Sequence record: NZ_CP123987.1 | DNA length: 64,000 nucleotides | Source: a plasmid | Strand: one strand, 5' to 3' | Shown here: positions 2,955 through 43,586 of the stretch, one piece after another | Numbering within the stretch: the stretch's first letter is position 1 | How the letters are laid out: every line of letters starts with the position of its first letter | Position numbers and translations under genes: made by a program | Notes under the pieces: generated by a model | Databases searched by the model: none | The model's input: the letters and a program-made list of their open reading frames with translations, nothing else | What the model was told of the DNA's origin: nothing

Positions 2955-4814
2955 CTATATTCCCTCCGTTATCTGTGTTAATGGTAAATCCATGTCATAT
3001 TCCAACAAATTATTATAAATTTCATCATATCCTGAAATCATAAAGATTAAGTCGTATACGCGAGACAGAATCTTACTCAATTTAGAGTTTAGATTTTGCG
3101 GTATACCTATTAAGAAAATGATTCTTACTTCTTTTCCCTGATATTTTACAGCTTTTGATAAGATGCCAACTGTCAACAATATTCTAGAATGATTAGATTT
3201 ATCAACCATATGCGGAATTGCAATCCCATTTTGGAAGACATTACTCATTTTTTCTTCTCTTTTCTTCCAATCTAGCTTAAATTCTGGTAATAATTCACCT
3301 GTTGAAATTTCTGTATCAATTAAATTCTCAACAGCTTTCAAATAGGAAATTCTTTCTTCAAATCTTTGAATTCTAAATTTTACTTGTTGGCTACTAATTC
3401 CCGCCATAACTTGCGATAGAGTTACTTTGCTAACTAATTCGTCATTCTTAAAGATACTCTGAATTCTAACAATTGGAGTTGTAACATCTTTACTTTCAAG
3501 TGGTAAAGTTGAAAATACAATCAAGTAACGTTCGGACGATTTCTTGAAACTTTCACTACTCTTGAAAACATCTGCTTCAGTTGTTCCTTGAAAAGTTTCA
3601 TTTAACCTACTAATAATCAAATTTTGAATACTTTTACTTACTTCACCAACAATCGCAACTTTATGATATTGAGGATTCCCTCTTTTTTCATCTTCTATTT
3701 CCATTTGATAATAAAGTGCTAAATAACCCAATTCTTTATCTGAAATCTTAATATGCAGTTTACTTTCTAATAAATTAACTGTCATAATAGCTAAATCTAC
3801 TGCCACTGGATATTTTTCAACAATTTCTCGACTGAATAGATCATCATTTCTCATATATGTGGCACTTCTATTTATCATGAAAATTGAATGATACTTTATC
3901 TGTTCAAAGACTCGATTGTAATCAATATCTAGACTGATATTTTCCTTAACTTGACTAAAAATTTCTGCAAATAATTCATCTATCCACATCAAGCGTTTAT
4001 TTATTCGTTCAGTATTTCTATTACTATAATTGATATTCAGTGGTATTAATAGGAAGCTTTTTTCTGCTTCTGTTATTTCCTTTGAATGTAAATACTTCTT
4101 TAATATAGATAGAATTTCGTCATTTACTTCAGAACTAGTTAATTCATAATAACAATCTGGCGTCGTTGAAATTTTTCTACCATGCTCATGTAAGAAGTTA
4201 AGTATTTTCAAATGTCTTATTATTAAATTACGTACTGTTTTACTTTTATCGTACTTTCTAACTAATTTGGTTATTTCCTGCTTTTCTTCAATTGCTAGTT
4301 TCTCACCCAAATCATAGTAGTCACAAACAAAGTTACGTAGAATGAAAGCAATCTGACAGTCTTCCTTACTTTCTAACATTACTCCGTTGTTACTTACCGA
4401 TCGAATAGTAGTATCGTAATCTTTTAATAGAAGTTTTATTTCTTTAATATCACGATTGATTGTACCTTTACTTACCATCAAATATTCAGATAAATCATCA
4501 AGTAACATATATCCTTTAGATTTAATCAGCATCAATAATATATATGCTTGACGTTTTAAAGGATTATTGAAATCCAAAGTTGTCTTTAAATAATGCGTCT
4601 GAAATTTAGCTAATCTAGCATAATCTTCGACTTTCAAATAATATTTTTGATTTTTTTCTTGAATCTCAGCTATTTCGCCTAATTCTTCATTCAAACTCGT
4701 TATATACTTTTGTAAAGTTTTCTTAGATACCTGTAACTCACTAACTAACCTATCTACTGTAATCGAATCATTTGTCGTAAGAATCTTAAACAATTGATAG
4801 TTTAATACATTCAT
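2955..4814 (-). CDS. gutR: Sorbitol operon transcriptional regulator (HTH plus PRD domains, BglG/GutR-like)
   Basis: 619-aa ORF with an N-terminal HTH-like region and PRD-like histidine-containing segments. Located between the dehydrogenase and gutM. Confidence 0.7.
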   Translation of the reverse strand: MNVLNYQLFKILTTNDSITVDRLVSELQVSKKTLQKYITSLNEELGEIAEIQEKNQKYYLKVEDYARLAKFQTHYLKTTLDFNNPLKRQAYILLMLIKSKGYMLLDDLSEYLMVSKGTINRDIKEIKLLLKDYDTTIRSVSNNGVMLESKEDCQIAFILRNFVCDYYDLGEKLAIEEKQEITKLVRKYDKSKTVRNLIIRHLKILNFLHEHGRKISTTPDCYYELTSSEVNDEILSILKKYLHSKEITEAEKSFLLIPLNINYSNRNTERINKRLMWIDELFAEIFSQVKENISLDIDYNRVFEQIKYHSIFMINRSATYMRNDDLFSREIVEKYPVAVDLAIMTVNLLESKLHIKISDKELGYLALYYQMEIEDEKRGNPQYHKVAIVGEVSKSIQNLIISRLNETFQGTTEADVFKSSESFKKSSERYLIVFSTLPLESKDVTTPIVRIQSIFKNDELVSKVTLSQVMAGISSQQVKFRIQRFEERISYLKAVENLIDTEISTGELLPEFKLDWKKREEKMSNVFQNGIAIPHMVDKSNHSRILLTVGILSKAVKYQGKEVRIIFLIGIPQNLNSKLSKILSRVYDLIFMISGYDEIYNNLLEYDMDLPLTQITEGI

Positions 4815-19964: not shown

Positions 19965-20822
19965 TCAGTCAGATTCGCATCCAGAATCCTTAACCCATCT
20001 TTCAAAGATAGCGTCACGTCTTGCTTCTTTATCCTTCAACATTCCATGTGTTTGTAACCAAACGTTTTTCGCAAAATTCAGTACTGCTTGCTCATATGTA
20101 TTACCACCACAATCCAAAGCAATATCATGATAGTAAGTTGTTGCGTATGGGACATCAGTATCATCTAAAACATGATATCCACCCTCAGCCCACCATTCTA
20201 CTTTTCCACTTGTTTCACTAGAAGTTGGATAAATATCCATAAAGTTTAAATTCATGTGTGATGTCTCCCAGAAGACTCTATTCCCATGAACATTTTCTTT
20301 CCAGAAATTAGGATGTGTCCTAAGCCATTCATAAATTAATAGAAAATTTTCATGCGTAAAACTGTCTTCTTTGACTTTCTTATCCAAATTTTTCCATTCT
20401 TGGTACTCATCTTCTAGGTTCTTAACACTATAGTCACCATGGTGTCTGAAAATTAGGTGATTCTTTGTCCAAAAGAAATCATCGCTCAAATTTCCAAATT
20501 CTCCTTTTTCATTAAGATCTTCATCTTCAGGTTCACCAAATACTTCATGTGCTATTTCATCTGAAAACCAAACTTCTCCGTCATTATCAGCTTGAGAGTA
20601 GGCTTCCAAGAAAGAATCATATACATAATCTACTTTTCCTAAATTTTCCTTATATTCCAATGAATATCCTAATTCCTCACTAAAGTAGATCCCCCATTTA
20701 TCATGTTTATTCTTTAGGATGATACGTTCTTTTTCAAATAGTTTTAGGTAATTAGGTGATTCTTTTACAAAATTAGGTATATCATAATTCAAAAATTTTT
20801 CTTCCATGTCATTCATCCTCAC
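19965..20822 (-). CDS. Hypothetical protein (Trp-rich, no recognisable domain)
   Basis: 285-aa ORF with coding-like composition. No family assigned from sequence alone. Confidence 0.5.
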   Translation of the reverse strand: MRMNDMEEKFLNYDIPNFVKESPNYLKLFEKERIILKNKHDKWGIYFSEELGYSLEYKENLGKVDYVYDSFLEAYSQADNDGEVWFSDEIAHEVFGEPEDEDLNEKGEFGNLSDDFFWTKNHLIFRHHGDYSVKNLEDEYQEWKNLDKKVKEDSFTHENFLLIYEWLRTHPNFWKENVHGNRVFWETSHMNLNFMDIYPTSSETSGKVEWWAEGGYHVLDDTDVPYATTYYHDIALDCGGNTYEQAVLNFAKNVWLQTHGMLKDKEARRDAIFERWVKDSGCESD

Positions 20823-21152
20823 TTGTTAATCTACAATAATCCTACCCTAATCTTTACGAAATAAAAATCTACCAGTGGTTTAATGGTAAAGAATATTCAA
20901 AAAATTTTTATTAATTATTATTTTTTAGAACGTTTTACTTTTGCAGCAACTAAGATAAGAAATAGTGGAATAATACCGGCAACTCACCCATATTTAAAAA
21001 TATCAATTATTCAATAGTAATAATACAATAAAAACTAGTATTGACTTTTTCATATGTACTCCTTAACTTCAAAATAAAAAATTAAGAAAAATCATTAAGT
21101 AAAAATATACTTTTTTAATTTGATTTTTCCTAACTTTCTTACTCTATTGATT

Positions 21153-21350
21153 TTAACGCTTTCTTTCATAACGTTTTGTTGTCACCAATGATTGATAGAC
21201 ATATCTTATACCTAGGTAAGTAAATAATATATCAATAATTGCAAATAAAAAATATCCTTTATCAAGAAAAATACTTCCTACTGCTATTGATAACATTACT
21301 AAACCGATATAAAAAGTATAATTTTTATAAAAATTTTTATTTATTTTCAT
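21153..21350 (-). CDS. Small membrane protein (hypothetical)
   Basis: 65 aa, 2 TM segments. Confidence 0.35.
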   Translation of the reverse strand: MKINKNFYKNYTFYIGLVMLSIAVGSIFLDKGYFLFAIIDILFTYLGIRYVYQSLVTTKRYERKR

Positions 21351-21857
21351 ATATTACTCTCCATTTCTACTAATAACTTCAGCTAGATTTTTCCATTATA
21401 TAATTTCATTTCCTAGTTTTAATTTATCATATTCTCAAATCATCGTGCCTAAATTATCGAATTAGGTCTTTTTTAATACATATCTGGCTTAACCAAATAC
21501 GCTTTAAAAAGTTCATATTAGGCTTGAAAAATCATCCTATCTTTCATTTGAAATACAATAACTATAGGTAATTATCTTAAATAAGGATGTGAAAAAAGTG
21601 AATAAAAGAATAGACTACTTTATTGGTATAGCCAATATATGTACAGGAATCCTAATGTTGTTTAATAGTAATAACTTATATCCCTTAATTTTTTGTATGA
21701 TGGGATTAATTTCTATAATTGCAACTACATTGAAGAAGTGAATACTAACTTTTATCTAATTTTGTTTAACATATTTAGCGACCCATTACTTTATATTGTA
21801 AATATATTAATAATAGTCAATAAACATTTGCAAAGATAATCATGAGATGTCATATAA

Positions 21858-21893
21858 AGAGGGTTGGAATACCCTAAGTTCCAACCCTCTTTA
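21858..21893. terminator. Terminator hairpin downstream of the QS operon
   Basis: AGAGGGTTGGAA...TTCCAACCCTCT perfect 12-bp stem. Confidence 0.8.
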
Positions 21894-22139
21894 TTAATTA
21901 TATTTTCTATTTTGTCTAATTTCTTTAATCAACATAACTATAAAAATCATTAATGTTCCCAATAAGATTAAACCTCTCATTGTTAACATAGGAGTTCGCA
22001 TAAGCCCATTTAAATTCAGTAATATTAACAATAGAAACCCTGCATACTTACTATTTCTCGTAAAATTCACTTTCAACCTTGAAATTACCATAAACCCTAC
22101 AATTAGCAATATAATAATACTTGTTTCTACCATGATCAT
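21894..22139 (-). CDS. Small membrane protein encoded downstream of the response regulator
   Basis: 81 aa, 3 TM segments. Last gene of the HK-RR operon. Confidence 0.5.
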   Translation of the reverse strand: MIMVETSIIILLIVGFMVISRLKVNFTRNSKYAGFLLLILLNLNGLMRTPMLTMRGLILLGTLMIFIVMLIKEIRQNRKYN

Positions 22140-22168: not shown

Positions 22169-22963
22169 TTAAACTGTTTTCAAATTATACCTTTCAATCA
22201 AACTTTTCATTTTAGCCTTACTTCTCCTAGGAAAAGTCTCCTTATATCCATCTTTAAAAGAAATACTCCTTGTTGACAGGTTAATTTCAACAATATTACT
22301 TGGATTAGCTAAACAAGATTGTGATATTTTTTCTAGAAAATCATTTTCTACCTCTAACTTCTTAATATCGCCTGTAAACTCACCCATACCATTAACTGTA
22401 ACTATTTTCAATCTATGTGACTTAGGAGTGGTAATAATATATAGAATATCATTGATATTTTCGTTAATAATTCTTCTGCCCATTTTATAGCTAAATGTCA
22501 TTTTCTTTATGGCATGAGATTCCCTAATTCTCCTTGCAGCTAATGATAAAGTCTCATTTAGTCGTTTTTGAATCACTTCATCATTATCATTTTTAGTAAT
22601 AAAATCCAATGCTCCAGTACGACGTCGATAAGTCATTGCTGCTAGATTTTCATAAGCTGTAATAAAAATTATCTGTGCATTTGGATCTTTTTGTCTAATA
22701 AATTCAGCTAAATCTATCCCATCTCTATCTGCTTTATCTTTACTAAGTTCAATATCTAAAAAATAAACTCCACTATCTACTTTGTTATCTTCCAAATAAT
22801 CGGCTACTTCAATATAACTATTAGCTTCCAAAGTTATTTTAAATTTTTTACCTTTACTGTCAGCAGAATCTTCTAAAGACCAAATAGCATATTTAACTAG
22901 ATCATGTATCCTTCTAACTTGATCCTTCTCATCGTCACAAATAATAATTCCATATTCTTCCAA
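22169..22963 (-). CDS. LytTR-family response regulator (AgrA/PlnC-like)
   Basis: N-terminal receiver domain (IIICDDE... D.. K) and C-terminal LytTR DNA-binding domain (YIITTPKSHRLKIVTVNGMGEFTGDIKKLE). Confidence 0.85.
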   Translation of the reverse strand: MEEYGIIICDDEKDQVRRIHDLVKYAIWSLEDSADSKGKKFKITLEANSYIEVADYLEDNKVDSGVYFLDIELSKDKADRDGIDLAEFIRQKDPNAQIIFITAYENLAAMTYRRRTGALDFITKNDNDEVIQKRLNETLSLAARRIRESHAIKKMTFSYKMGRRIINENINDILYIITTPKSHRLKIVTVNGMGEFTGDIKKLEVENDFLEKISQSCLANPSNIVEINLSTRSISFKDGYKETFPRRSKAKMKSLIERYNLKTV

Positions 22964-22976
22964 ATTAAACTACCCC

Positions 22977-24264
22977 TTAAATGCTCATAACCATAAGGAA
23001 AGTAAACCAACCATCTTTAATTTGATAATTAATAAAAATATCATTATAAGATTGACTTAATTCTTCTATATTAGCTAATCCTAATCCGTCATGATTCTTC
23101 TTAGTTGTAAAACCTGATTTTTTTATATCTTGAATTGTTAGATCGGTATCTCGATAACGATTTCTAATCTCAATTTCAAGTTCACCATTTTCTTGATAAA
23201 TCATAGTATCTATCTTAGCTTCATCACCAAACTCAAGACTTTCTTCAATTGCATTATCGTACACAATTCCTAATATTCTAACAATGTCAAACGAGTTATA
23301 CTTATTCGACAAGTTTTCTATCACAATTCGACATTCAAAAGAATATTGAATATTGTTTTGAAAGATTCTATTCAACTTACTGATAAATAGACTCTTTAAT
23401 AATTCATCTTTAACATTGTCAACATCATTAAACTGCCATAATACTTTATCTTCTAAAGTCTTACTTGAATATTCAGCTAGTTTATCTATTAACTCTTTAT
23501 CATGACTTTTTTTACACTGAGTTTCAAGCTTAATAGCATATTTTGATAATCGTGCTTAAATTTACGTAAACCTCGCTGGCTACTTTCTAACTGTTGTGTA
23601 TAAATTTTTAGATCATTAATTTGTTGTAAACTTAATTTATCCTGCCGTATTTTCTTATTAATGGAATATACAAATAATGAAAAGAACAATTGGCTAACAA
23701 CAACTACCGTAGCTATAATATACGATACTGCATCTATATTAAATACATATGTTGTTAGATAGTAAATAACCATTGAACTAATCCATATGTATAAAATTAA
23801 ATAAAAATACAATAATCCATACTCATCATCTAGTTTCTCTATTATAGTCGTCTTTGTTAAAATTATATATTCAAAAATGTTTAATGACACATCTAATATT
23901 ATCACACTGACCATTGTGTAATAATTTGTAAATAATGTAAAAAATAATGCTGAAGCACCGAATGTTATATAGGAAAATAAATCTAGCATTAACAACCTTC
24001 CACATAATCTGTAATCCAAAGTTAGTTGTCTGTATACAATATAAAAAATAAAAATTTCAATAAATGGTGCAAAAAAACCAATAATATCTCCAACACCATT
24101 AATTAAAAGAATTACAGGAAAAGTAAGAAGTATAAATAATAAATTATACTTCTTACTTTTCCTAGTAGGGGTCAAAAGATAAAAAAACTATATCTACAAA
24201 AAGTATTTATAAATAAAATTAGTGTAGCTACTATATAACCAGATGTTGAATTTAAATTAACCAT
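22977..24264 (-). pseudogene. AgrC-like (HPK10) histidine kinase, frame-disrupted
   Basis: ATG at 24262-24264 overlaps the IP stop (TAATG). The frame is lost at an A7/T7 tract at 24181-24187. The TM sensor plus H-box (RKFKHDYQNML) ORF runs 23489..24175. The HATPase part (GLGLANIEE) 22977..23375 is in the same frame but separated by TAA, TAG, TAG. The intervening 45 nt read sensibly (SHDKELIDKLAEYSSK) only in another frame. Confidence 0.7.
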
Positions 24265-24380
24265 TATTTACAAACACCAAAAAATGTGAATATACATTGC
24301 CATCTTTTAAAGCCACCCTTTTTGGTTGCTCCCCCAGCTATTTTCTGTAACTTCTTTTCTGTTAACACTTCAAACTTCAT
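24264..24380 (-). CDS. Induction-peptide (autoinducer) precursor with double-glycine leader
   Basis: Unannotated 38-aa ORF MKFEVLTEKKLQKIAGG/ATKKGGFKRWQCIFTFFGVCK. RBS GGAGAG 7 nt upstream. Immediately upstream of and overlapping the HK start. Classic IP-HK-RR arrangement. Confidence 0.75.
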   Translation of the reverse strand: MKFEVLTEKKLQKIAGGATKKGGFKRWQCIFTFFGVCK

Positions 24381-24499
24381 AAAAAATCTCTCCTTTGTTA
24401 TCTTTATTACAAATATAGTTTAACATTTTTTAATCTACTTTATTCGTTTTTTATCATATTCGGTTCATTTTAATGCTTATTTGGATGAAATTCTTAAAA

Positions 24500-24688
24500 C
24501 TATAGCCACCACATAAAATTTAACACCCACGCTCTCACATAACTTATTTTCTTATTCTTTTCTATGACTTTCTCATCAAATAACTTATGATGCCCCTCTT
24601 CTTTTAGACTAGTATAAATACTGATAAAAATACTATATGCAACTATTACAGTAATCCCAAATATCATATACTCACTTCCTAATCCCAA
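24500..24688 (-). CDS. Small membrane protein, candidate bacteriocin immunity protein
   Basis: 62 aa with one TM segment, directly downstream of the two bacteriocin peptide genes. Confidence 0.4.
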   Translation of the reverse strand: MGLGSEYMIFGITVIVAYSIFISIYTSLKEEGHHKLFDEKVIEKNKKISYVRAWVLNFMWWL

Positions 24689-24811
24689 AATATATTATGT
24701 TCTATTAAAAATAAAAGTAGTGTCAAATTTAGCTATATACTATAACTTACACTTGACACTACTTGAAGAAAAATAGATTTATTTCTTATTTTCTAATTCA
24801 TTAGACTTATT

Positions 24812-25018
24812 CTAACGGCAACTTGTAAAGCCACCAGAAATTCCACCCGCTACGGCTGACCAGGGTCCACCGATAGCTCCAATTAAAGCTCCACCTACGA
24901 TGCCAGCTCCACAGTGAACCCAGCGATTTCCACTACCACCATAACCATTTTTACCACCATTTACTGATGCTAAGTTATCTTCAGTCATAATTGTGAATCT
25001 TTTATCTAGATTTTTCAT
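24812..25018 (-). CDS. Class IIb bacteriocin peptide (beta-like), GG-leader, Gly-rich
   Basis: MKNLDKRFTIMTEDNLASVNGG leader, then KNGYGGSGNRWVHCGAGIVGGALIGAIGGPWSAVAGGISGGFTSCR with multiple GxxxG motifs. Resembles LafX/GatX-type peptides. RBS AGGAG 9 nt upstream. Confidence 0.8.
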   Translation of the reverse strand: MKNLDKRFTIMTEDNLASVNGGKNGYGGSGNRWVHCGAGIVGGALIGAIGGPWSAVAGGISGGFTSCR

Positions 25019-25035
25019 TTTAAATTACTCCTATA

Positions 25036-25227
25036 TTATAAACAAGTAAGTGCTCCGCCTACCATTCCTAAGTTTGCTCCACCTACAATACCAGCTGGTC
25101 CAAGTGGAACTCCTGCAGCTGCTCCAGCAAATAGACCACCTAAAAAGTTACCTACACAGTTAGGACCACGTTTCCCACCATCAACCTTTGCTAACTCACA
25201 TTCTGTCAATACTGTAAATTCCTTCAT
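25036..25227 (-). CDS. Class IIb bacteriocin peptide (alpha-like), GG-leader, Gly-rich
   Basis: MKEFTVLTECELAKVDGG leader, then KRGPNCVGNFLGGLFAGAAAGVPLGPAGIVGGANLGMVGGALTCL (GxxxG-rich, 2 Cys). RBS AAAGGA upstream. Start chosen at MKEF; an alternative ATG lies 3 nt upstream. Confidence 0.8.
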   Translation of the reverse strand: MKEFTVLTECELAKVDGGKRGPNCVGNFLGGLFAGAAAGVPLGPAGIVGGANLGMVGGALTCL

Positions 25228-25235
25228 CATGATAA

Positions 25236-25622: not shown

Positions 25623-25796
25623 TTAACTACAAATATTTTGATTTGAGTGTCTTAATCTTTTAAAAAATTTAGTATTAGCAATTGTACAGCCTATATCGTA
25701 ACCAAACTGTCCGCTATCTATATAATCATAAGAATTTCTTCCACCAATTATATGTGCCAATTCTTTCTTATCAACTTGTACAAAATTATTATTCAT
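25623..25796 (-). CDS. Unannotated GG-leader peptide (bacteriocin-like or pheromone-like), 57 aa
   Basis: MNNNFVQVDKKELAHIIGG/RNSYDYIDSGQFGYDIGCTIANTKFFKRLRHSNQNICS. RBS GAGGTG 9 nt upstream. TATAAT box about 30 nt upstream. Below the ORF-track length cutoff. Confidence 0.65.
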   Translation of the reverse strand: MNNNFVQVDKKELAHIIGGRNSYDYIDSGQFGYDIGCTIANTKFFKRLRHSNQNICS

Positions 25797-40364: not shown

Positions 40365-40683
40365 AATGAATTGTGAGGTAATAGATTATGAAAAAACTTT
40401 ATTCTGCTCTTATGACTGCATTTAACGAAGATGGTTCTGTTAACTTAGACGGTGTTCGTGAAATGGTTCGTTACAATATTGATGTAAATCATATCGATGG
40501 ACTTTATGTAGGTGGTAGTACTGGTGAAACTTTCATGCTTAGTACAGAAGAAAAAAAGAGTATCTTCAAGGTTGCTTATGAAGAAGCTGCTGGCAAAACA
40601 CATCTTATTGTAAACACACTATAGTGTGACATTACAGATAAAAAGGCCCTCAAAATCACATTTTCCTAGTGATTTTGAGGGCC

Positions 40684-42210
40684 TTACTTTGTACAAATTT
40701 CTTTAACTTTAGAATTCCATGGCAAATAAGCTCCAACCTTGACATTTTCTCGTTTTTCTAATAGTGAGAAAATGTAGTTGAAATACTTGAATATATCTAA
40801 GCCATTCAACTTGGCTGTTTGAACTAAACTATAAAATATTGCACTAGCTTTGGCACCATCAACGCTTCTCGCAAACAATGAGTTCTTACGAACTAAGGTA
40901 GATAGCCTAATCACTTGTTCTATCGGATTGTTTGATAGAGGGAGTTCGCCAATTTTATATATATTTTCTAATCTAGGCTGAAATTTTTTGGCATATTCAA
41001 CAGCTTTCTTTAATTTACTGCTAGGATTAGGGATAGTATCCAGAAAATCGTAGAATTCATCAACATATTTTTTCAAATGAAGCTTCCGCTTCAGTACTTT
41101 TTCTTCTGCATTTTGATACTCAAGCTTCTTTTCTTCTTTAAAAATACGATTTAATAATTCTACCGCTCTTACTGCATATGATCCTCTTCCTTGTTTTAAA
41201 GATTTGACTATTTCCACAAAATGTCTGCGTATATGCACCAAACAGCTACCATATGTAATTTGTGGATACATTTCACTGCTATAGGCATTATAACCATCAC
41301 ACATAATTGCTCCAGTGTAAGCTCCAACCAGATTAGAAATATTTTCTTGCTTTCGGCTACTAGAGTAATTAAACACCACTATTTGATGATTTGAAAATTC
41401 TTCTGTCGTTCTCATTACCCAAAAATACGATTTACTTCGATTCTTTTCTTCCAACACCTGAAAAGGAGTTTCGTCCATATGAATAACCGGATTTTTCAAT
41501 AAAATCTTAGTAAGTTCATCGTGAACCGTTTCTAACTGTTCACTCAATTTAATGATGGCACGTGCCATATGCTTTGTATCTATTGGTAAGCCAATATGTT
41601 TAAAATATATTGCTTGTCTATTCAATGGTACAGCCATTAAATATTTAGAAGTAACTACTTGAGCCAATACACTACTGGAAAAATAACTATGTGGAAAAAT
41701 AGGACTAGTAGGTACTTTACCGGCAACTATTTTATCGCCACCTTTTGGGTGGCAATTTTCACATTTATAGGTTTGCTGATAATGATTACGACAAAAAAGC
41801 TCAGGTTGTTTCAAGCCTACCTCTCGATAAACACATTTTTTGCCAATTAGAGTGAGTTTTTCATGACAATCAGCACAATTTTTTTGTTCAAGATCATGAA
41901 CGACATCTACTTGTACTAAAGTATCAAGAAACTCAGCTCGTTGACCACGTGGTTTAACTTTTCGGTGGCAAACTACTCTAAGCTCTACTTCAACTTCTTC
42001 ATTTTCTTTAGATGAAATATCAGAATCTATATCTAATTCTTCTAATTCAGCCTCTGAAAAAAATGAAAGTTGATTTTTATCTAATTTTTCCGTTTTTTTT
42101 CCAAAAATACGGGCATTGAGAAGCTTAATAGTTTCAGACAATTCTTCAATCTTTTTATGAAGTTGTTGATTTTCCTTTTCAAGCTCCTCTATTCTTTTGT
42201 CTTTATCCAT
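40684..42210 (-). CDS. tnpC: IS66 family transposase TnpC
   Basis: 508 aa with a leucine-zipper-like N-terminus, CxxC...CxxC zinc finger and DDE region. Confidence 0.85.
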   Translation of the reverse strand: MDKDKRIEELEKENQQLHKKIEELSETIKLLNARIFGKKTEKLDKNQLSFFSEAELEELDIDSDISSKENEEVEVELRVVCHRKVKPRGQRAEFLDTLVQVDVVHDLEQKNCADCHEKLTLIGKKCVYREVGLKQPELFCRNHYQQTYKCENCHPKGGDKIVAGKVPTSPIFPHSYFSSSVLAQVVTSKYLMAVPLNRQAIYFKHIGLPIDTKHMARAIIKLSEQLETVHDELTKILLKNPVIHMDETPFQVLEEKNRSKSYFWVMRTTEEFSNHQIVVFNYSSSRKQENISNLVGAYTGAIMCDGYNAYSSEMYPQITYGSCLVHIRRHFVEIVKSLKQGRGSYAVRAVELLNRIFKEEKKLEYQNAEEKVLKRKLHLKKYVDEFYDFLDTIPNPSSKLKKAVEYAKKFQPRLENIYKIGELPLSNNPIEQVIRLSTLVRKNSLFARSVDGAKASAIFYSLVQTAKLNGLDIFKYFNYIFSLLEKRENVKVGAYLPWNSKVKEICTK

Positions 42211-42284
42211 AGTTCGCCACCTCCTCTTTTAAGATTATGCTTAAAAGCATACCAGTAGGCAGCGTTTTTAGTAAAGAAAAATTT

Positions 42285-42641
42285 TTAATAAAATGCACCT
42301 TTTGGTGCTAAATGTACTTTGGGTTGTGGTAAAGGATTAAGTCCACTTAAAAGTAAGTCAATTTGTTGGTTATCTAATTCTTTAACTTCTTCACTAGTTT
42401 TCGGCCAAGTTAAATTACCATTTTCGAAACGTTTATAGAGTAGTATAAAACCTTCACCATCCCAATAAAGAGCTTTAAATCTGTCGTTTCTTCGACCACA
42501 GAACAAGAAGATTGAATCATTATAAAGATTCATACCAAAATTATCGGCAATTAAAATTGCCAGTGTATCGATTCCTTTACGTAAATCAGTGTTGCCACAA
42601 ACAATATATACATGTTTAGGAGAGTGATAATTAACTAACAT
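42285..42641 (-). CDS. tnpB: IS66 Orf2 (TnpB) accessory protein
   Basis: 118 aa, conserved IS66 Orf2 pattern (DLRKGIDTLA...LYWDGEGF). Confidence 0.8.
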   Translation of the reverse strand: MLVNYHSPKHVYIVCGNTDLRKGIDTLAILIADNFGMNLYNDSIFLFCGRRNDRFKALYWDGEGFILLYKRFENGNLTWPKTSEEVKELDNQQIDLLLSGLNPLPQPKVHLAPKGAFY

Positions 42642-42882
42642 ATTTCTTTATCAACTCCCAGACGTCATTCATTACTTCAGTATCAACTCCGTGACACAAC
42701 AAAATTTTCACCTTATCAAATTTAATTTCAGCATCTAAATTCAATTTGGTTGTTTTAATTTTAGTTGCTGTTTTCCGTTTTTTAGTTGGTTTTACTTCAA
42801 CAATTTCAGTTTCTTCCATTGTATAAAAAATCCTCCTATACTTTTTATGATAATAGTATAGGGGGATTTCAAATTTTTTCAT
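42631..42882 (-). CDS. IS66 Orf1 (TnpA-like) small protein
   Basis: 83 aa, overlaps Orf2 as is typical for IS66. Confidence 0.5.
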   Translation of the reverse strand: MKKFEIPLYYYHKKYRRIFYTMEETEIVEVKPTKKRKTATKIKTTKLNLDAEIKFDKVKILLCHGVDTEVMNDVWELIKKYVS

Positions 42883-43586
42883 ATTCAGCTCATTATAAAG
42901 TACTTACATCTTATTGCTCAAGTAGGGTCTTTGAATTTAAATGAAGCAAAAGAATTAGCTAAATATGTGACTGATTTAGGTTACCCTATGATTTCTGCTG
43001 TTACACCTTTCTATTATAATTTCTCATTTGAACAAATTAAGAATTATTATAATTCAATTCTTGAAGGTGTAGATAATAAACTTATTATTTATTCTATTCC
43101 AGCTTTAACAGGTGTAGCATTATCTCTAGATCAATTTGCTGAATTGTTTGAAAATCCAAAAATTGTAGGTATTAAATATACTAATGCCGATTTCTATCTC
43201 CTAGAACGTGTTCGTAATCGTTTCCCAGATAAGTTAATTCTTTCAGGTTTTGACGAAATGCTATTACCTGCTCTTGCATTGGACGTTGATGGTGCAATTG
43301 GTTCAACATTTAACTTAAACGCTCCTCGTGTTAAAGAAGAAATTGCAGCTTTCGAGGCTGGAGATATAGAAAAAGCTCGTGAACTTCAAACATTAAGTAA
43401 TGACTATATTACTGATCTTTTAAATAATGATTTATATCCAACTATTAAGTTAGTATTTGAAAAAATTGGTGTTCATGCTGGCTACTGCAAAGAACCTATG
43501 AGCAAGCCAACTCCTGAAATGGAAGCTGGAGCTCAAAAGATTTATGAAAAATATTTCAAAGAATAGTAGAAATTGGGGTGAAGATT

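Follow-up and report, generated by a model that had tools for sequence, protein, structure and literature searches.

The 64-kb stretch of sequence record NZ_CP123987.1 analysed here (the window) comes from a Ligilactobacillus salivarius megaplasmid of the repA type, and its region 22169–25230 is the abp118/salivaricin locus, read from the minus strand. Our subject is abpK, the sensor histidine kinase gene of this locus, which sits between the gene for an induction peptide (abpIP) and that for a response regulator (abpR), as does its orthologue in strain UCC118. A 2.4-kb query around abpK matches L. salivarius plasmids only, best of all pHN3 of strain CECT 5713 and pLS2102-15_1 of strain 2102-15 (99.8% identity each), with pMP118 of UCC118 at 98.3%; a 24-kb query is 99.9% identical to pLS2102-15_1. 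In UCC118, the AbpT and AbpD proteins export and cleave AbpIP, and AbpK senses AbpIP and phosphorylates AbpR, which then turns on the bacteriocin, immunity and regulatory operons (PMC10095417). In the window, abpK carries two single-base deletions, and we consider it very probable that the gene is an inherited, genuine pseudogene of the AgrC-like sensor of AbpIP in the AbpIP–AbpK–AbpR circuit for the two-peptide bacteriocin Abp118.

Two single-base deletions in abpK

We examined abpK by three-frame translation and by alignment with seven other L. salivarius megaplasmids (UCC118, LPM01, SNK-6, ZLS006, CECT 5713, 2102-15 and B4311). The ATG at 24264 shares bases with the abpIP stop codon (TAATG), and abpR begins 13 nucleotides (nt) 3′ of the gene. 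The 1288-nt span equals 1 modulo 3, i.e. a net loss of 2 nt, and apart from two 1-nt deletions the alignment contains no indel in abpK. The first deletion shortens a run of eight thymidines on the gene strand (T8 in UCC118, LPM01, ZLS006 and SNK-6) to the T7 present in the window, CECT 5713 and 2102-15. As an earlier note on this sequence had proposed, the frame that opens at the ATG is lost here, and one T added at 24181–24187 restores ...YSFFYLLTPTRKSKKYNLLFIL...; the open reading frame (ORF) that starts at the ATG has 30 codons, of which the first 28 are genuine. The second deletion shortens a run of eight adenosines (A8 to A7), is accompanied by a C-to-T substitution at the adjoining base and lies 14 codons past the phospho-accepting histidine. 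These two runs are the only 8-nt homopolymers of the intact UCC118 gene and the longest that it contains. The comparison with orthologous kinases of related strains thus confirms both homopolymer sites as lesions.

The middle ORF spans positions 24175–23489 and its end reads ...VKKVMIKS, followed by two stops, IN and a third stop. The stops described in the earlier note (TAA, TAG, two sense codons, TAG) are therefore present, but they do not constitute a separate lesion; they are out-of-frame noise past a single frameshift. Only part of the repair proposed for this region is needed. One base added to the A7 run at 23507–23513 restores ...SVKKSHDKELIDKLAEYSSK..., after which the frame is open through SSKTLEDKVLWQF... 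down to the stop at 22977. The window is the same as intact UCC118 at 23460–23461, where a third lesion had been placed, and removal of a C from this position would create a frameshift rather than cure one.

With both sites repaired (one T and one A), abpK becomes a 1290-nt ORF of 429 codons, and its product is identical to UCC118 AbpK at 427 of the 429 residues (99.5%), the sole differences being M186T and A251V. At the nucleotide level, four substitutions separate the two genes. The reading frames in the window step from 1 to 0 to 2, as predicted for two single-base deletions. The gene is broken twice, not three times, and neither break is compensated: the half carrying the H-box is in frame 0, the ATPase half is in frame 2 and the net change is −2 nt. 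The claim of a compensated double frameshift, with both halves remaining in one frame, stems from an error in following the frames.

Table 1. Features of the abp118 locus in the window, in 5′ to 3′ order of the minus strand
Feature	Position	Strand	Description
abp118-alpha	25036–25230	−	structural gene; 100% identical to UCC118
abp118-beta	24812–25018	−	structural gene; 100% identical to UCC118
abpIM homologue	~24503–24667	−	immunity gene; 55-residue match, 89% identity to UCC118
abpIP	24264–24380	−	induction-peptide precursor, 38 residues, intact; 100% identical to UCC118; PF19154, E = 5e-30
abpK pseudogene	22977–24264	−	sensor histidine kinase gene, formerly of 429 codons; 1288 nt, 2 nt shorter overall than in UCC118
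abpK fragment 1	24172–24264	−	30-codon ORF: 28 genuine abpK codons, then two out-of-frame codons and TGA
abpK lesion 1	24181–24187	−	T7 on the gene strand, T8 in intact alleles; 1-nt deletion; U_UUU_UUU in the incoming frame
abpK hairpin	24116–24163	−	perfect 20-bp stem with 8-nt loop inside abpK, codons ~34–50; ΔG −29.3 kcal/mol, z = −8.6
abpK fragment 2	23515–24180	−	rest of the membrane sensor domain and H-box FKHDYQN (His238); second frame, runs on to stops at 23489–23494
abpK lesion 2	23507–23514	−	GTGT+A7, GTGC+A8 in intact alleles; 1-nt deletion in the A run (23507–23513) and adjoining C→T (A251V); A_AAA_AAA in the incoming frame
abpK fragment 3	22977–23506	−	remaining dimerisation helix region and ATP-binding domain; N-box YDNAIE, G-box DGLGL; third frame, uninterrupted
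abpR	22169–22963	−	LytTR-type response regulator, intact, 264 residues; Response_reg and LytTR domains; 97% identical to UCC118 AbpR
Site of abpT (ABC transporter/peptidase) and abpD (accessory protein) in UCC118 and CECT 5713	20808–21896		~1.1 kb here instead of the 3.5 kb of these two genes

The repaired protein has the architecture of an AgrC-like kinase, in agreement with the assignment made in the earlier note. A Kyte–Doolittle scan, run on the reconstructed sequence only, picks out six clear hydrophobic segments from residue 44 to residue 198, and a weaker seventh segment, below the threshold of the scan, can be seen by eye at about residues 9–27. The H-box FKHDYQNML (His238) aligns with FRHDYVNIL of Staphylococcus aureus AgrC (PDB 6e52, E = 1.1e-17), which is the best match among solved structures. 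The C-terminal GHKL ATPase domain (residues 324–426) matches PF14501, HATPase_c_5, with E = 2.4e-13 and 50.3 bits (cutoff 22), and the third fragment taken by itself matches the same family (E = 2.5e-14). The operon context is also that of AgrC-like kinases, with a double-glycine pheromone gene, abpIP, immediately on the 5′ side and a LytTR regulator gene, abpR, on the 3′ side. A single ORF linking the sensor, H-box and ATPase domain is absent, however; three frames are needed, and stops follow codon 30 and the 14th codon past the histidine. abpK is a pseudogene of the AgrC-like (HPK10-type) family and not a functional member of it. Membership in the staphylococcal AgrC equivalog family (NCBIfam NF046015) was ruled out, with a score of 68.4 bits against a cutoff of 500.

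The kinase is of the same class as S. aureus AgrC, with a polytopic sensor domain, FxHDY H-box, HATPase_c_5 domain, LytTR partner and peptide pheromone gene. The abp system differs from agr in that its signal is a linear double-glycine peptide, whereas the agr signal is a thiolactone made by AgrB/AgrD, and in that it governs bacteriocin production and not virulence. In S. aureus isolates, agrC and agrA commonly carry loss-of-function frameshifts at poly-A/T runs. As a side observation on annotation, RefSeq gives the intact abpK genes of UCC118, LPM01 and SNK-6 as 337 codons (3513–4526 of the locus extract), against 429 in the ORF itself and in the original annotation of UCC118. The RefSeq start lies 276 nt past the real ATG, so that many database entries lack two to three transmembrane segments at the N terminus.

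The allele in other strains and alternative explanations

The broken allele is not confined to the window. Ten contigs of NCBI assemblies contain the exact C-terminal ORF of the window. T7 and A7 are present in both GCA_009866265.1, which shows 100% identity to the window across 2401 nt, and GCA_048381415.1, which departs from it at one base. The haplotype that combines T7 with the C-to-T change and A7 is present in at least four independent isolate assemblies (these two, CECT 5713 and 2102-15) and in one metagenome contig. The last of these, OGGB01010525.1, came from a scan of JGI/ENA metagenomes with a pattern accepting both alleles, which also returned three contigs with C and A8, the two that span the first site having T8 as well. 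In a 15-billion-protein collection with NCBI, ENA and Logan sources, the 166-residue middle fragment is found on 32 contigs and the 115-residue C-terminal fragment on 509, with intact UCC118 AbpK on 330. We also note that OGGB01010525.1 has a 30-nt insertion with a few changed bases at the equivalent of window positions ~24044–24063, in the region coding for the membrane domain; this is either one more lesion or the product of chimeric assembly.

Strains with this allele, or one very like it, have been described. CECT 5713 makes no bacteriocin owing to an abpK frameshift (PMC11241558, citing Langa et al. 2012), and it has the same T7/A7 haplotype as the window. Strain P1CEA3, whose genome was assembled from Illumina reads, has an abpK* split into ORFs of 17, 166 and 75 residues; no Abp118 was detected from it, it is sensitive to Abp118 made in vitro and it lacks abpT and abpD (PMC10095417). 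A 166-residue ORF requires the A7 state, and the ORF sizes together indicate T7/A7. P1CEA3 further resembles the window in its identities to UCC118 (89% for AbpIM, 100% for AbpIP and 97% for AbpR) and in the absence of abpT and abpD. The published phenotypes of CECT 5713 and P1CEA3 agree with a dead locus. They bear out the suggestion of the earlier note that the sensor was recently pseudogenised to give a ‘deaf’ locus, as does the repaired protein, which is only two residues away from UCC118 AbpK. The state of abpK is real, ordinary and already known, abpK* having been described for sister strains of the same species.

Three other explanations of the two deletions deserve consideration. The one that survives best, though we think it improbable, is reversible phase variation, in which the runs of 7 or 8 nt would serve as contingency tracts, turning the sensor off and on within a population. 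Phase variants of agr have been reported in S. aureus, the two lesions coincide exactly with the longest homopolymers in abpK, and each could be reverted by a single-base gain. Both tract states exist across strains, and in ZLS006 an A7 run occurs on a different haplotype, which retains the C and has a divergent 3′ half, suggesting that slippage is recurrent. Within the clade, however, T7 and A7 are fixed, linked and always found together, so that two tracts would have to revert jointly. The tracts are interrupted in the divergent abpK alleles of B4311 and C2-1 and are therefore no conserved design feature, and 8-nt A/T runs are short for efficient switching. Moreover, the lesions of sister strains fall outside runs of at least 7 nt (a 4-bp deletion, a 2-bp lesion, an abpR frameshift and the 30-nt insertion), and abpT and abpD are deleted. 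Additional lesions together with loss of the exporter are the signature of relaxed selection. A broader version, in which lineages toggle by tract length between a producer and a silent ‘cheater’, or retain a little sensor by means of −1 slippage that is aided at the first site by a hairpin, appears slightly less probable still; were it true, the broken state of abpK would be no dead end.

The A7 run of ZLS006 merits description for its own sake. In this strain A8 has become A7 without the neighbouring C-to-T change, T8 is retained at the first site and the 3′ half is divergent (locus-extract position ~4010). Either the same run slipped independently or the record contains a long-read homopolymer error.

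The latter possibility leads to the question of whether the window itself carries sequencing errors, abpK being intact (T8 and A8) and both runs having been under-called by the platform or the polisher. The earlier note had left such miscalls open. Both lesions are 1-nt contractions of 8-nt A/T homopolymers, which are a classic error mode of 454, PacBio and Nanopore sequencing; CECT 5713 (2010) was reportedly sequenced by 454, and the A7 of ZLS006 on another haplotype could be a platform error. A miscall is nevertheless very unlikely to be the cause. The same haplotype recurs in the isolate assemblies and the metagenome contig listed above, fragments of the allele occur on 32 to 509 public contigs, Logan and ENA sources included, and the Illumina-based P1CEA3 genome has the 166-residue middle ORF. 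The deletion in the A run is linked to a neighbouring substitution, and neither CECT 5713 nor P1CEA3 is a producer. Homopolymer noise across the assembly in general was also considered and rejected: over the 49.7 kb shared with pLS2102-15_1, none of 34 homopolymers of at least 7 nt differs in length, and relative to UCC118 only two of 24 do, both of them in abpK.

Equally unlikely is leaky recoding, in which −1 ribosomal frameshifting or transcriptional slippage at both heptamers would supply a low level of full-length AbpK. Read by eye in the incoming frame, both sites match the X_XXY_YYZ heptamer perfectly, the wild-type residues would result if a −1 shift took place at each, and a very stable hairpin starts 13 nt after the first. 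This spacing is beyond the usual 5–9 nt, however, no structure follows the second site (z = −0.4) and the hairpin also occurs in intact UCC118 abpK and lacks conservation in other alleles. Thus, although the heptamers are those of programmed −1 frameshifting, the spacing, second-site structure and orthologue conservation expected of it are lacking. In-frame orthologues are the norm, two independent low-efficiency events would multiply to a negligible yield, further lesions pile up in sister strains and non-producer phenotypes have been published.

The hairpin has its own interest. Counting the flanking UAC/GUA pairs, its stem is 23 bp (24167–24113), and it is this extended stem that starts 13 nt 3′ of the first lesion. 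The arms are AGGAAAAGTAAGAAGTATAA and TTATACTTCTTACTTTTCCT, followed by GTAATTCTTTT, and the structure was flagged as terminator-like by our scan. It lies ~100 nt past the end of abpIP. Intact UCC118 has the identical hairpin, but the divergent alleles of B4311, C2-1 and H1 do not conserve it; a hand count finds ~10 of the 20 positions complementary in B4311. The hairpin could be an attenuator that sets the ratio of abpIP to abpK transcript, or a quasi-palindrome perfected by template switching.

Several points weigh against an inherited pseudogene in a dead circuit. (i) A shared systematic under-call of 8-nt runs is formally conceivable, but it would require the same error on several platforms, confined to these two runs. 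(ii) Both lesions lie in perfect −1 slippery heptamers, and trace full-length protein from slippage is conceivable. (iii) abpT and abpD could lie elsewhere in the genome, outside the window. (iv) The window lacks the extra 5′ lesion near 24216–24219 that is present in CECT 5713, P1CEA3 and 2102-15, and phenotypes are known only for such sister strains. (v) The order of events that we propose below assumes no recombination, and mosaic plasmids could blur it.

Missing exporter genes and the proposed order of decay

How would the two deletions have arisen, and what would they do? Slipped-strand mispairing is the probable cause of both T8→T7 and A8→A7. Translation from the native ATG would then end after 30 codons, and an internal restart could give no more than a membrane/H-box product that stops 14 residues past the histidine and lacks the ATPase domain. 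The ATPase domain would be left in the third frame with a TTG start, and no GGAGG-type ribosome-binding motif is visible just upstream of this codon by eye, a scan not having been made. Because no full-length kinase would be made, AbpR is predicted to remain unphosphorylated and the locus would not be inducible. AbpR itself appears sound, as the earlier note had stated: its gene is intact, with both domains in place.

A second defect, which the earlier note did not mention, concerns export. A tblastn search with UCC118 AbpT and AbpD finds no match for either within the 64-kb window. The interval where they would be expected (Table 1) is bounded by a 79-codon membrane-protein gene (21897–22133) and the next conserved gene (ending at 20807), and synteny shows the same exporter-less layout in 2102-15, LPM01, ZLS006 and SNK-6. 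With abpT and abpD missing, neither AbpIP nor the bacteriocins would be processed or secreted. As judged from its genes, the locus would be both ‘deaf’ and ‘mute’. UCC118 differs from the window on both counts, having T8 and A8 in abpK and retaining abpT and abpD downstream.

Comparable loci are known from chicken isolates of L. salivarius. Their ‘Type B’ salivaricin loci are without lanT/hlyD (abpT/abpD), a loss that is polyphyletic, and the strains are non-producing but still bacteriocin-resistant, non-production being ascribed to loss of the exporter (PMC11617682). The window resembles these loci in that the exporter genes are gone and the structural and immunity genes are kept. It differs from other strains with this type of layout, such as the exporter-less LPM01 and SNK-6, which retain an intact abpK; in the window the kinase is broken too.

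The remaining parts of the circuit can be described briefly. The AbpIP leader is of the double-glycine type (...KIAGG/ATKKGG...), and the peptide, as a synthetic inducer, would be ATKKGGFKRWQCIFTFFGVCK. A repeat search for AbpR-box direct repeats upstream of abpIP and the structural genes gave nothing convincing; the sole repeat found is a 10-nt pair, TAATCCCAAA, 28 nt apart at 24652–24689, at the start of abpIM. A promoter scan of the sequence was uninformative, with a count that did not exceed that of shuffled sequence. A gene for a 57-residue salivaricin B-like prepeptide (25623–25796, minus strand; 98% identity to the UCC118 copy) lies upstream of the abp118 genes, and the salivaricin B precursor of UCC118 is listed as nonfunctional (PMC4165912). 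The window contains no nisin precursor.

Elsewhere in the window, positions 40611–42905 form an insertion of 2.3 kb that pLS2102-15_1 does not have. Within it lies an IS66-family pair, consisting of a TnpB-like ORF of 118 codons (42285–42641) and a transposase-like ORF of 508 codons (40684–42210), the family name resting on a reading of the sequences and not on a family scan. The insertion interrupts an N-acetylneuraminate lyase gene, of which a 211-codon C-terminal remnant remains at 42931–43566, and ~11 bp of pLS2102-15_1 align at both of its ends. It looks like a second gene inactivation in the same strain.

Comparison with the sister strains suggests how the decay of the abp118 locus may have proceeded. 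2102-15 has a 4-bp deletion near 24216–24219 that reduces its first ORF to 17 codons, compared with 30 in the window; the 17-residue first ORF of P1CEA3 implies the same deletion, and its ORF sizes fit the 2102-15 type and not the window. The CECT 5713 record shows a 2-nt net loss near the same positions, and this strain, unlike the window, still has abpT and abpD. The window therefore looks like an earlier stage of the same abpK decay than CECT 5713, P1CEA3 or 2102-15. In the 49.7-kb comparison with pLS2102-15_1, the sole two indels are the 4-bp abpK deletion of 2102-15 (24216–24219) and a 1-bp deletion that splits its abpR (22486). Both fall in an already dead regulatory module, which suggests ongoing decay or selection against the module.

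The simplest order of events would be that the kinase lesions came first, followed by loss of the exporter and then by further decay in sister strains. The kinase lesions are placed first because CECT 5713 shares T7/A7 yet keeps abpT and abpD. Divergence from UCC118 is itself mosaic, with ~30 substitutions in abpR (795 nt) as against the four in abpK (1288 nt), and this unevenness indicates a recombination breakpoint near the abpK/abpR junction.

In practical terms, a strain with this megaplasmid should be scored as an Abp118/salivaricin non-producer, even though genome mining will report a cluster with intact structural genes, and if it resembles P1CEA3 in this respect, it may even be bacteriocin-sensitive. 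The point is relevant to the screening of L. salivarius strains as probiotics, although its practical meaning is modest. For the biology of the species, the clade provides a small staged series in the decay of a quorum-sensing/bacteriocin locus, in which the sensor, then the exporter and then the regulator would be lost. Such staged decay agrees with reports for L. salivarius and for the agr and blp systems, and it opens no new question.

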